Shown here: positions 93-8,927 of the stretch, piece after piece
Layout: every line of letters begins with the position of its first letter
How positions within the stretch are numbered: position 1 is the first letter of the stretch
Virus record (IMG/VR): IMGVR_UViG_2909246061_000004
Length of the DNA: 25,849 nt
From: a virus
Taxonomy: Duplodnaviria; Heunggongvirae; Uroviricota; Caudoviricetes
Strand: one strand, 5' to 3'
Notes under the pieces: model-generated
Told to the model about the DNA's origin: nothing
The model's database searches: none
What the model saw: the letters and a program-made list of their open reading frames with translations, nothing else
Position numbers and translations under genes: made by a program

Positions 93-284
93 TTAAAGAC
101 CTGCCGGGATTTCGTTATTATCCTGGTGAATAACTTTATCGACCGGGTAACAGTTACCGGGAATTTTCTGTTCGGTTGCTGCAGTCATACACTCCTGCAT
201 TGTCCTGTGAACACTGACTGCAATATCAACTGGCTCTCCGGAAACAAGAAAAACTGTCAGAACAAGCGCAAATGCTGAATTCAT
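93..284 (-). CDS. ydfD: YdfD-like small lysis protein (63 aa), last gene of the dicB operon
   Basis: Internal ATG of ORF 93..338 gives MNSAFALVLTVFLVSGEPVD... with an N-terminal hydrophobic segment; its start overlaps the dicB stop in an ATGA arrangement; position matches ydfD downstream of dicB in Qin (recalled from memory). Confidence 0.55.
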   Translation of the reverse strand: MNSAFALVLTVFLVSGEPVDIAVSVHRTMQECMTAATEQKIPGNCYPVDKVIHQDNNEIPAGL

Positions 285-4766: not shown

Positions 4767-6050
4767 CGAGATTAAAGTGCATTAGTTCAGATGCAAATTG
4801 ACATTTTGTGGCACAGGGTAGAGCTAGCGTGGTTGTCCGCTTTGTGCCAACAGCGGACATTATGGAAGGTCAGAGTTAAAGATTAAAATGGGATGCTGTG
4901 TGTTTTCTCCAGGTTTTGCTCTATACCTTTCGGGATACTCCACCGACAGAATACGAAAATCAACATTATCAACGGCTCGAAGTGTCTAGATTATCCATGG
5001 CAATTCATGGGAAATCCCATCCAACGGCTTATGCTTCATGTTGCTTTTTGAGATCGCTTCTAGCATAGCTCCACTCAATAATGTTGTCGGGTCGTTGCTG
5101 ATCGAAAAGGATACGGGATTCAATACCATTACCTAAAAAGCTGGTATTCCCATCTACGTAAGAAGCTATCCCTTGTGAACCAACACGAAGAATATTTTCT
5201 AATGGCTGTTTTGTTCTTGCTGCATCGCTAAGGAGATATAAACCCGGGTACGTTTTGTTAGCACGGTGAAAAAAAAGTTCATTGTCAAAACACATGACGA
5301 TGATTATTTGTCCCGACATGAGATCGGAGAGCATTTCAGTTGGCAGATGCAAACTCATAAATGGTCGAGACAAAGGGTCAAAGAATGAATCATTTATATT
5401 CACAACAGGGCTTTTTATACCGAGACTATCCATCCATCCATTGAAGGCAACAAAGCCCATTTCAGAATCACGGTACATACCTAAGAACAAACATTCATCA
5501 ATAGTATCAATTGCCCAATTTTTTCCTCCGCGAATAATCTCCCACATTTTAACTAAGCGGTGGGTATAAAATTCAGACGGATGATCTATCTCATTGATTT
5601 TAACTTTAGACTGATGAAAGTTGTCAAAGCCCTCGCCAGTATTAATCGCCTCCAGAACATTCATGCCACGAATGATTTGCCTTTTTATGCGATTAAATTG
5701 CTTAACATCATTATCAGGCATATTGTTAATGAAGTTTTCTTCAAAGTGCGGACATTCTGAGATAACAGAAAATTCAGCAGCTTCATAAAGCTCATTATTC
5801 TTTTCACCTGTTTTAACTTCCACGAGCTGGAAGCCATCCAGTAGATTAAAGGTGACTAAATCTCCCACATGAACAAATGTGCTCATGTCAGAGACAATCG
5901 CTACGGAGTGTTTGTCCTGGTTGATAAGATCGGCTGCGACCATAGAATCAATTATGTTATCTTCTGATAGATTGTCATTGCTTGCATTAATAGGTAAACG
6001 CCGCAAACTAGAGTGTTCTTCATCAAGAATGCTCCAAATTATTGAGTCAA

Positions 6051-6059
6051 TACAACGGC
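6051..6059. repeat. IS1 target-site duplication, left copy (TACAACGGC)
   Basis: Identical 9-mer at 6828..6836 directly flanking the other IS1 end. Confidence 0.85.
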
Positions 6060-6074
6060 GGTAATGACTCCAAC

Positions 6075-6578
6075 TTATTGATAGTGTTTTATGTTCAGAT
6101 AATGCCCGATGACTTTGTCATGCAGCTCCACCGATTTTGAGAACGACAGCGACTTCCGTCCCAGCCGTGCCAGGTGCTGCCTCAGATTCAGGTTATGCCG
6201 CTCAATTCGCTGCGTATATCGCTTGCTGATTACGTGCAGCTTTCCCTTCAGGCGGGATTCATACAGCGGCCAGCCATCCGTCATCCATATCACCACGTCA
6301 AAGGGTGACAGCAGGCTCATAAGACGCCCCAGCGTCGCCATAGTGCGTTCACCGAATACGTGCGCAACAACCGTCTTCCGGAGCCTGTCATACGCGTAAA
6401 ACAGCCAGCGCTGGCGCGATTTAGCCCCGACATAGCCCCACTGTTCGTCCATTTCCGCGCAGACGATGACGTCACTGCCCGGCTGTATGCGCGAGGTTAC
6501 CGACTGCGGCCTGAGTTTTTTAAATGGCGGAAAATCGTGTTGAGGCCAACGCCCATAATGCGGGCGGTTGCCCGGCAT
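6075..6578 (-). CDS. insB: IS1 InsB (transposase C-terminal frame)
   Basis: 167-aa ORF matching remembered IS1 InsB. Confidence 0.9.
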
Positions 6579-6772
6579 CCAACGCCATTCATGGCCATAT
6601 CAATGATTTTCTGGTGCGTACCGGGTTGAGAAGCGGTGTAAGTGAACTGCAGTTGCCATGTTTTACGGCAGTGAGAGCAGAGATAGCGCTGATGTCCGGC
6701 AGTGCTTTTGCCGTTACGCACCACCCCGTCAGTAGCTGAACAGGAGGGACAGCTGATAGAAACAGAAGCCAC
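6497..6772 (-). CDS. insA: IS1 InsA
   Basis: 91-aa [43 protein letters not shown]... matching remembered IS1 InsA. Confidence 0.9.
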
Positions 6773-6827
6773 TGGAGCACCTCAAAAACACCATCATACA
6801 CTAAATCAGTAAGTTGGCAGCATCACC

Positions 6828-6836
6828 TACAACGGC
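6828..6836. repeat. IS1 target-site duplication, right copy (TACAACGGC)
   Basis: Identical to 6051..6059. Confidence 0.85.
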
Positions 6837-7286
6837 GAAGAATAAGAATTTCAAATTTTTTTAAACTTATTTCATCAATACACTTTTCTTTATTTTCTTT
6901 ATCCTTGTTTCGATGGTGCTCTTTTTTTTCAGTTTTCAATCTTTTTATATCTCTCAGCCGAATAATAATCTCAAAAGATATGATTTTTTGTGAGTCTTTC
7001 CAATTTTTGAGACAGGTTTCATACTCTGCAAGAAAATCCTCATCATTGGAAGGTAGTTCTTGAATTGGATTCCCTCCCCTTATCATTTTGGCAAGTGCAT
7101 GCATTAAAGATACATAATGAGGTGATAAAATTGTCCAAAACTTCCTAAACGGTTTGTACTTTTCAAGAAAAGTTGACTCATCAGTATAATTCATCATAAC
7201 CAAACCTCATTCCTCTTATCTATTTTCCTCAAGGTATAAAATACCAGCCTTTTTTACATAATTATAGTTATAATATGAAGTCTCAT

Positions 7287-8156
7287 TCAGATATCTTCAT
7301 ACTGTACGTAAGAAATATTTGAGCCTCTGATACCATAATCTTCTAAACTGCCTGATTTTTTCTCACCTCTATATAAAGCAACTATCCATCGAGCATTTTC
7401 TTGGATGCTTTTATTTATTTCAGTAAAGTATTCACCGTCAACTTCGGCGAGCGAGTGGCCTAAAACGATGACCTCGTCCACATTTTTAAGCGATGAGAAA
7501 AAAACGTTTTCTTCTTTAATTATGTCTTCGCTGGGCTTGAATGTATTACCGAAGTATTCGTTTATTCTGTCGTATGCCTCTGCTATTCTTGTATCTTGAT
7601 CCGGTCCTATATATGGATTTAGTGACTTTTCCACCCTAAAACTATGACCAAGTATGAGATCGTCATCGTAACTACAATTGCCGTGAATATGTATGATTTG
7701 CTCGTCTGGAACGGCATAGATCTGCTGCAAGGTATTTGTATAATTAAATGAAAAATAGATGCTTTCTCTTGGTATGGGCGGGATGTATTGCTTAGGATTG
7801 TAAGCATCGGCTATGTTAATCCCTTTAACCCAATCAGCGAATTGCTCCTTCAAACGAGCTGACAGCATTTGTGTGATTTTATTTACTTCATATTGGTAAT
7901 CGTGATGATAAGCATCGCTCCAATCATCGGTATTGTATGAAGCCAAAAATATCTCACTGTTTTGAAGGATAAGCTCATAATCAATTTCACCTAAAGCATT
8001 TTCTAACTCATTCCACTCGTCCCCAGCAGGAATGTATTCTTCTATCGCGTCATATAGATCTTGGTCATTTTTTTCTACATACGACTTAAAGTGCTTGTAT
8101 CCTGTTGGTAAGCCATGACGCATGTCAAATCCATTTCCTATTATGTAAAGCCTCAT
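7287..8156 (-). CDS. AbiH-like abortive-infection protein (290 aa)
   Basis: Start at the ATG at 8156 with AAGGGA RBS 8 nt upstream; N-terminus MRLYIIGNGFDMRHGLPTGY carries the IGNGFD-x-HGL motif remembered for the AbiH family; AT-rich gene inside a prophage. Confidence 0.5.
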   Translation of the reverse strand: MRLYIIGNGFDMRHGLPTGYKHFKSYVEKNDQDLYDAIEEYIPAGDEWNELENALGEIDYELILQNSEIFLASYNTDDWSDAYHHDYQYEVNKITQMLSARLKEQFADWVKGINIADAYNPKQYIPPIPRESIYFSFNYTNTLQQIYAVPDEQIIHIHGNCSYDDDLILGHSFRVEKSLNPYIGPDQDTRIAEAYDRINEYFGNTFKPSEDIIKEENVFFSSLKNVDEVIVLGHSLAEVDGEYFTEINKSIQENARWIVALYRGEKKSGSLEDYGIRGSNISYVQYEDI

Positions 8157-8470
8157 TGTTTTTCCCTTAGTCGAATTGTATAAAAATACTAACATGGCCT
8201 GCTCCACGTTGACTACTATCCCCTCCTTTGAGTAATGCCTTCATCAGATGTAACAACATTTGCGAGCTTCCACAGTTCGCTCAAAGCGGACTAGAAGGTT
8301 AGCTTGCGTCGGACTTGGCGTATTTAAAGAAGTGCTGGTGGAGACTGGTTGTTGTGTTCCATTTCTACAGAACAAAATCACAGAAACTATACCCAATAGT
8401 TATATTGAATCAATGATGAGACAGCCTCATATTTATCAGGACTGGTGTACGTCCAATACAGGAGGTTGTC

Positions 8471-8560: not shown

Positions 8561-8771
8561 TTTTATATTGGCGAGGTGACGTGAGTTAAGTAGAATTGCT
8601 GCGGGTGCTTGAGGCTATCTGCCTCAGGCATGAACACCAAAGGCAGATAGAGAAAAGCCCCAGTTAACATTACGCGTCCTGCAAGACGCTTAACATTAAT
8701 CTGAGGCCAATTTCATGCTAGACACATGTAGGTTAGCCTCTTACGTGCCGAAAGGCAAGGAGAAGCAGGCT

Positions 8772-8927
8772 ATGAAGCAGCAAAAGGCGATGTTAATCGC
8801 CCTGATCGTCATCTGTTTAACCGTCATAGTGACGGCACTGGTAACGAGGAAAGACCTCTGCGAGGTACGAATCCGAACCGGCCAGACGGAGGTCGCTGTC
8901 TTCACAGCTTACGAACCTGAGGAGTAA
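8772..8927 (+). CDS. hokD: Hok-family type I toxin (51 aa), HokD/RelF-like
   Basis: MKQQKAMLIALIVICLTVIVTALVTRKDLCEVRIRTGQTEVAVFTAYEPEE matches remembered HokD; AAGGAG RBS; structured leader upstream and terminator downstream. Confidence 0.85.
   Translation: MKQQKAMLIALIVICLTVIVTALVTRKDLCEVRIRTGQTEVAVFTAYEPEE

Follow-up and report, generated by a model that had tools for sequence, protein, structure and literature searches.

What was the gene that an insertion sequence has cut in two in a stretch of prophage DNA from Escherichia coli, and does its product carry the active site of a nuclease? The stretch is the virus record IMGVR_UViG_2909246061_000004, 25 849 nucleotides in length (hereafter, the window), which is a Qin-like lambdoid prophage of E. 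coli PSS-10 (NZ_AP027685.1). An original prediction, made from the sequence, saw in the C-terminal fragment of the split gene a possible motif of the PD-(D/E)xK nuclease type, which would suit a defence effector. We reconstructed the gene, compared it with published anti-phage systems and examined the conservation and the predicted structural setting of the motif.

Identity of the split gene

The gene is encoded on the minus strand. From its start at 7197 (ATGATGAAT…) it can be read as far as 6828, where it is broken by a 768-bp IS1. The element has the typical ends (GGTGATGCTGCCAACTTACTGAT… and …ATCAATAAGTTGGAGTCATTACC), terminal inverted repeats, insA and insB open reading frames (ORFs) on the minus strand and a 9-bp direct repeat on both of its flanks (Table 1), and it is annotated as 'IS1B family' in RefSeq. 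That the gene was split by IS1, as had been proposed, is therefore borne out by the element itself and by its target duplication. Deletion of IS1 together with one copy of the repeat, so that 7197..6828 is joined to 6050..5029, restores an in-frame, uninterrupted ORF of 463 amino acids (aa), MMNYTDEST…KKQHEA, and the reconstructed DNA is 100% identical to intact genes of other E. coli genomes.

Judged by its sequence, the split gene is an IS1-broken copy of DS-37, a known and tested anti-phage gene (clone SC24, WP_000982358.1, NZ_QOXM01000003.1:26984-28375; DeWeirdt et al., 'DefensePredictor', Science 2026, PMC13092281). The comparison covers the 399 residues printed in Table S8 of that paper, the last 64 residues of WP_000982358.1 being outside it, and over these the two proteins agree at 398/399 positions, with one difference, K88E; the lengths also agree (463 aa for the protein and 1392 nt for the gene). 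The window copy thus shares with clone SC24 its 463 aa, its origin in E. coli and the D187/E201xK203 motif, but differs from it in being interrupted by IS1 and annotated as two hypothetical proteins. The supposition that the gene codes for a defence effector proved correct, since DS-37 is a validated single-gene anti-phage system (PMC13092281), here with an AbiH gene adjoining. Cloned alone as a single-gene transcription unit, intact DS-37 protects E. coli by about 2 to 6.5 logs, the reduction in plating by SC24 being 6.5 logs for Bas1, 4.8 for Bas9, 4.3 for Bas69, 4.0 for Bas3 and 1.9 for SECphi27 (PMC13092281). DS-37 is also a DefenseFinder subtype, again as a single-gene system (PMC13639185). 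The family, its defence phenotype, a tentative PD-(D/E)xK label and the association with AbiH are all published already. As for the copy in the window, it is almost certainly inactive, because IS1 cuts it between codons 123 and 124.

In RefSeq (NZ_AP027685.1), the two halves are entered as two ordinary 'hypothetical protein' coding sequences (CDSs) and not as a pseudogene: the 5' half, at 6823-7197 of the window, is AABK11_RS11450 (WP_233309033.1, 124 aa) and the 3' half, at 5029-6006, is AABK11_RS11460 (WP_141094377.1, 325 aa).

Conservation and predicted fold of the motif region

The peptide with D…E-x-K that had been noticed in the C-terminal fragment is indeed present, as VHVGDLVTFNLLDGFQLVEVKTG in the minus-strand ORF 5029..6006, although the spacing of ~16 residues assigned to it was not confirmed: counted from D187 to E201 it is 14. 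Taken alone, D-x(10-30)-[DE]-x-K is no evidence beyond chance: it occurs 9 times in the protein against a mean of 6.8 in shuffled sequences, 98% of which contain at least one. What distinguishes the D187/E201/K203 copy is conservation, and it stands out from chance pairs because its residues are invariant across homologues. A word-indexed search gave 48 close homologues with 41-96% identity, every one labelled 'hypothetical', and an exhaustive profile search gave 685 representative clusters with E ≤ 1e-3 (180 of them with E ≤ 1e-30), mostly of 430-500 aa, so that the family comprises at least 685 clusters at 50% identity; a second homologue search, seeded with the diverse alignment, brought up nearly the same close set and nothing further. 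D187, E201 and K203 are invariant in 30/30 close homologues and again in 136/136 diverse members, which share only about 20-60% identity. Across these 136, the only residues that are 100% invariant are D178, D187, E201, K203, G205, R244 and Q248, with N208 (98%) and P444 (99%) close behind; D178, D187, E201, K203, R244 and Q248 are thus the family's only fully invariant polar residues, and the PD-(D/E)xK signature D…(D/E)-x-K is present throughout. The check on motif conservation therefore yielded nothing that refutes the prediction. Further towards the N-terminus, a helix with H63, G65 and Q70 and the pair D125/W129 are 85-96% conserved family-wide. E116 was considered as a conserved acidic residue of alpha1 and rejected: it is invariant in the close clade, but not conserved across the family.

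Two peculiarities of length were seen among the homologues. In a clade of 485-490 aa the C-terminus is prolonged by a tail of about 25 residues with a very high content of Lys and Arg (e.g. KKKRIEKKIAQKKIKEARKRSKK); the E. coli protein does not have this tail, which may bind nucleic acid. A few distant members (P0161, P0163, P0167 and P0183), 670-690 aa long, are extended at the N-terminus by about 250 aa without a Pfam match.

A second structure model was computed with AlphaFold2 for a naturally shorter homologue, P0046 (393 aa), together with 119 diverse sequences, and reached a mean predicted local distance difference test (pLDDT) score of 96.3 and a predicted template modelling (pTM) score of 0.90. 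Its secondary structure, assigned with DSSP and given in E. coli numbering, is listed in Table 1. In broad terms, DS-37 is predicted to consist of an N-terminal helical hairpin (~aa 52-131), a central alpha-beta-beta-beta-alpha unit (~aa 153-221) continued by a long helix, and a C-terminal alpha/beta region for which no recognisable relative was found. The order of elements along the chain, as assigned by DSSP, is alpha-beta-beta-beta-alpha(-beta) and fits the PD-(D/E)xK core. In the model D187 opens beta2, and E201-x-K203, which closes beta3, lies on the other arm of the hairpin. On this modelled placement and the invariance of the residues, we consider it reasonably probable that DS-37 is a true PD-(D/E)xK-type nuclease.

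Table 1. Features of the split gene and its neighbour in the window, and secondary structure predicted around the motif (aa, E. coli numbering)
Feature	Position	Strand	Remarks
DS-37 5' fragment	6828..7197	-	codons 1-123 and first base of codon 124; encodes the greater part of the long N-terminal helical hairpin
IS1 (IS1B-like), disrupts DS-37	6060..6827	-	'IS1-like element IS1B family transposase' in NZ_AP027685.1
Target-site duplication, copy 1 (9 bp)	6828..6836	.	plus strand TACAACGGC
Target-site duplication, copy 2 (9 bp)	6051..6059	.	plus strand TACAACGGC
DS-37 3' fragment	5029..6050	-	codons 124-463 and stop; putative nuclease core and C-terminal alpha/beta region
Motif VHVGDLVTFNLLDGFQLVEVKTG, aa 183-205	5806-5874	-	inside ORF 5029..6006
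D187 codon	5860-5862	-	
E201 codon	5818-5820	-	
K203 codon	5812-5814	-	
D178 codon	5887..5889	-	further invariant acidic residue just past beta1
R244 to Q248 codons	5677..5691	-	R244 and Q248 invariant, one helical turn apart, on the long helix after the core
AbiH-family gene, intact	7287..8195	-	PF14253, E = 6.6e-69; RefSeq annotation; 89 bp upstream of DS-37
Helix	aa 153-167		DSSP of model
beta1	aa 173-176		followed by D178; DSSP of model
beta1-beta2 loop			ends in G186-D187; DSSP of model
beta2	aa 188-192		DSSP of model
beta3	aa 196-200		after a tight turn; E201-x-K203 directly after; DSSP of model
Helix	aa 206-221		G205 as cap, N208 within; then a short helix; DSSP of model
Long helix	aa 236-261		R244 and Q248 one turn apart; DSSP of model
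Two strands	aa 263-266 and 271-274		after the long helix; DSSP of model

The idea of a nuclease is itself already in print, on published support that is equally weak. The domain label given to DS-37, 'PDDEXK', goes back to HHpred, which matched residues 154-204 to NERD (PF08378) at a probability of 0.47 (PMC13092281). In our searches NERD was not matched by the E. coli protein at E values up to 1, nor by homologue P0001 at E values up to 10, and it was not among the 25 families matched by the largest numbers of members when 103 of these were scanned against Pfam one by one. The family with the largest number of matching members in that scan was SduA_C (PF14082, the PD-(D/E)xK domain of Shedu), with 4/103 members and a best E value of 0.013; all four matches were below threshold, so that membership of the Shedu family is not indicated. 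PADLOC gave single weak matches to SduA (two models), REase_II and DruK, among others. When DS-37 was aligned by hhalign with Mrr_cat (PF04471), the latter represented by an alignment built from the neighbour gene of one DS-37 homologue locus (L010), VEVK of DS-37 fell on VEAK of Mrr_cat, with a negligible score.

A detail of the published table touches the same residues. In the domain sheet of Table S8 (PMC13092281), two columns of motif positions are out of register with the rows, as can be told because '412-414 / 398' is given there for a 332-aa protein. The entry '201-203 / 187', which stands on the RED7 row, fits DS-37 exactly and, by our own inference, belongs to it.

Genomic setting, distribution and upstream neighbours

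The order of genes in the prophage is integrase, exonuclease, ydfD, dicB, ydfA, repressors, a YdaT-like protein, replisome organiser and DUF977, after which come the IS1-interrupted DS-37 and AbiH on the opposite strand, and then hokD, ydfU, Q, essQ, rrrQ and cspI. AbiH and DS-37 thus sit in the accessory region of this Qin-like prophage, with the DUF977 gene on one side and hokD on the other. An ORF for a type I toxin of the Hok family is found at about 8715-8927 (+), just past AbiH; in the matching genomes it is annotated as hokD.

DS-37 was found in 66 of 5426 complete E. coli genomes, with ≥99% identity in 65/66. In 63 of the 66 carriers at least 80% of the gene is in one place, and only PSS-10 has the IS1. 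In two others, NZ_CM141451.1 and NZ_CM142926.1, the match to the gene is 1391 or 1388 nt long and the annotation shows two hypothetical proteins in its place, which suggests independent inactivation by frameshift. There was no match to the gene in the phage genome collection, and 14 matches were found in plasmids. A search for related loci gave only four, of which two are tiny contigs and probably contamination. A 583-bp contig of Streptomyces plumbiresistens and a 245-bp contig of Vogesella urethralis encode fragments that share 92% and 83% identity, respectively, with enterobacterial DS-37; these are most likely enterobacterial contamination of the assemblies.

Elsewhere, DS-37 copies are found in defence islands or among the cargo genes of mobile elements. 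The slot directly upstream is taken by AbiH also in Klebsiella, by Abi_2 in Pantoea plasmids (with an 18-bp gap to the DS-37 homologue) and, in Dickeya, by a DUF3644 protein with a weak EC042_2821 restriction-endonuclease-like domain (17-bp gap). Three unrelated Abi-type genes have therefore been seen in this position, at distances of 17 to about 90 bp, which suggests either modular pairing or a shared insertion hotspot. In the 485-aa clade, most of the copies examined lack a partner of this type; their sites are a P2-like prophage, the transfer region of an integrative and conjugative element, and an Aeromonas island, where the neighbours are AAA_15 and UvrD-helicase genes, which we read as Gabija-like, and a pP_pnuc gene. 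AbiH, an abortive-infection protein of Lactococcus (PF14253), resembles DS-37 in being a defence gene borne on mobile elements and adjoins it here, but it is a separate protein without homology to DS-37; it is Sir2-like, and NAD+ (nicotinamide adenine dinucleotide) depletion has been proposed from its fold (PMC13064643).

DUF3644 was also tried as a 'Rosetta stone' tying DS-37 to the Mrr nucleases, and was rejected: the Mrr_cat proteins that go by this name do not match Pfam DUF3644. NCBI calls several Mrr_cat proteins of 290 aa (P0213, P0233, P0276 and P0285) 'DUF3644 domain-containing protein', and for P0213, P0233 and P0285 we obtained no Pfam DUF3644 match at E ≤ 0.1; the naming looks inconsistent.

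Nuclease, new fold or two-gene module

Taken as a whole, the explanation that we hold to be probable is that the gene is an IS1-broken DS-37, a single-gene defence cargo beside AbiH, whose product is most likely a Mg2+-dependent nuclease. Such an enzyme would cut phage or host nucleic acid upon infection. D187 and E201, possibly with D178, would bind the divalent metal, K203 would act as general base or electrostatic catalyst, and R244 and Q248 may touch a phosphate of the substrate; the coiled-coil hairpin and the C-terminal alpha/beta region might serve in oligomerisation or assembly, in sensing, or in autoinhibition.

Several observations weigh against a nuclease of this kind. The protein matches no family in Pfam, NCBIfam, PHROG or PADLOC, and ten distant relatives have no Pfam match either. 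Sequence-profile searches of the PDB gave only chance matches (Nup214, chaperonin 11), the hhalign probability with Mrr_cat was 0.8% over the whole protein and 0.3% over the core, and Foldseek found nothing in the PDB for the DS-37 model (best E value of 0.32). An unusually long loop, with an extra invariant Asp (D178), joins beta1 to beta2, and since E116 is not conserved family-wide, there is no obvious acidic residue in alpha1. The placement of D187, E201 and K203 is read from the DSSP order of the model, and in the literature we found no catalytic mutant or nuclease assay of DS-37, the mutants described in PMC13092281 being of other systems. The original prediction is accordingly supported in part: the residues are invariant, and their placement and the local order of elements fit PD-(D/E)xK, but neither profile searches, with a probability below 1% for Mrr_cat, nor Foldseek lend it statistical support. 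In comparison with the PD-(D/E)xK superfamily (VRR-NUC, Hjc-type resolvases, SduA_C, NERD, Mrr_cat, EcoRI), to which no statistically significant match in sequence or structure was found, DS-37 has the long beta1-beta2 loop with D178 and the invariant R244-x3-Q248 on a long helix, and its core makes up only ~15% of the protein, the rest (the coiled-coil hairpin and a 200-aa alpha/beta region) having no known relative. Going by the high-confidence model, most of DS-37 appears to be without a structural relative in the PDB.

A rival reading is that DS-37 has a new fold and is an enzyme of another kind or binds a ligand, in which case D178, D187, E201, K203, R244 and Q248 would form a different site, for instance for a nucleotide, a small molecule or phosphotransfer, and the resemblance to D…ExK would be convergent. 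That neither profile-profile nor hidden Markov model searches tie the family to any nuclease family speaks for this, as does the presence of the invariant D178, R244 and Q248 and the conserved N208 outside the minimal PD-(D/E)xK signature. We nevertheless regard a new fold as rather unlikely. In the model, a D before beta2, ExK at the end of beta3 of the hairpin and then a helix would be exactly the PD-(D/E)xK arrangement; the weak matches that recur or are functionally named (SduA_C, SduA, REase_II, DruK, NERD) are to PD-(D/E)xK nuclease families; and the two acidic residues do not form a DxD as in nucleotidyltransferases. Moreover, PD-(D/E)xK domains embedded in larger proteins are well known to evade sequence and fold searches, which we count against the new fold. 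Partnership with an Abi protein is a separate question, compatible with a nuclease as with a new fold. In its natural setting DS-37 could act not on its own but in a two-gene module, together with the variable gene upstream of it (AbiH, Abi_2 of the HEPN type, or the DUF3644 protein), one partner sensing for or regulating the other, in which case IS1 would also alter the behaviour of AbiH. The upstream gene lies nearby on the same strand, three different Abi-type partners take the same position, and 240 of 341 RefSeq instances of DS-37 (71%) are beside AbiH (PMC13639185). Against this, DS-37 is found beside only 12% of AbiH instances (PMC13639185), DS-37 alone protects (PMC13092281), and most of the copies examined in the 485-aa clade are without such a partner, so that we think a module unlikely, if somewhat less so than a new fold. 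A further consideration is the general one that defence genes cluster in islands without interacting, and this we also set against a module.

A last possibility concerns the 3' fragment, which might still be expressed, either starting from the TTG of 6006 or through IS1 read-out, and be active as a deregulated, toxic or still defensive nuclease. A 325-aa ORF with a TTG start does remain and is annotated as a CDS, and homologues without the N-terminus are on record (P0046, 393 aa; P0038, 439 aa). However, these come from short contigs or possibly reflect alternative start calls; residues 1-138 are gone from the fragment, and with them D125/W129 and the conserved helix of H63/G65/Q70; neither a promoter nor a ribosome-binding site is in evidence; and an unregulated nuclease would probably be counter-selected. 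We consider activity of the fragment very improbable. The boldest proposal is that DS-37 is no classical restriction-fold nuclease but the founder of a large family (at least 685 clusters at 50% identity) whose fold is new and whose active site is D-D-E-K-R-Q, and in addition an interchangeable partner of upstream Abi proteins (AbiH, Abi_2, the DUF3644 protein). This seems to us improbable; if true, DS-37 and Abi would form one modular defence architecture of two genes and not two systems independent of each other.

As to the significance of these results, the window itself adds only an IS1-inactivated allele of DS-37 and, as a dead copy of a published system, matters little. What the analysis adds for the family is a list of residues that can be mutated, D178, D187, E201, K203, R244 and Q248, invariant throughout, together with a domain model that is mostly without relatives in the PDB and the finding that different Abi-type genes take the slot upstream of DS-37. 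Finally, the annotation of the broken gene as two hypothetical proteins means that annotation-based counts of defence systems can miss or miscount those that have been inactivated by insertion.
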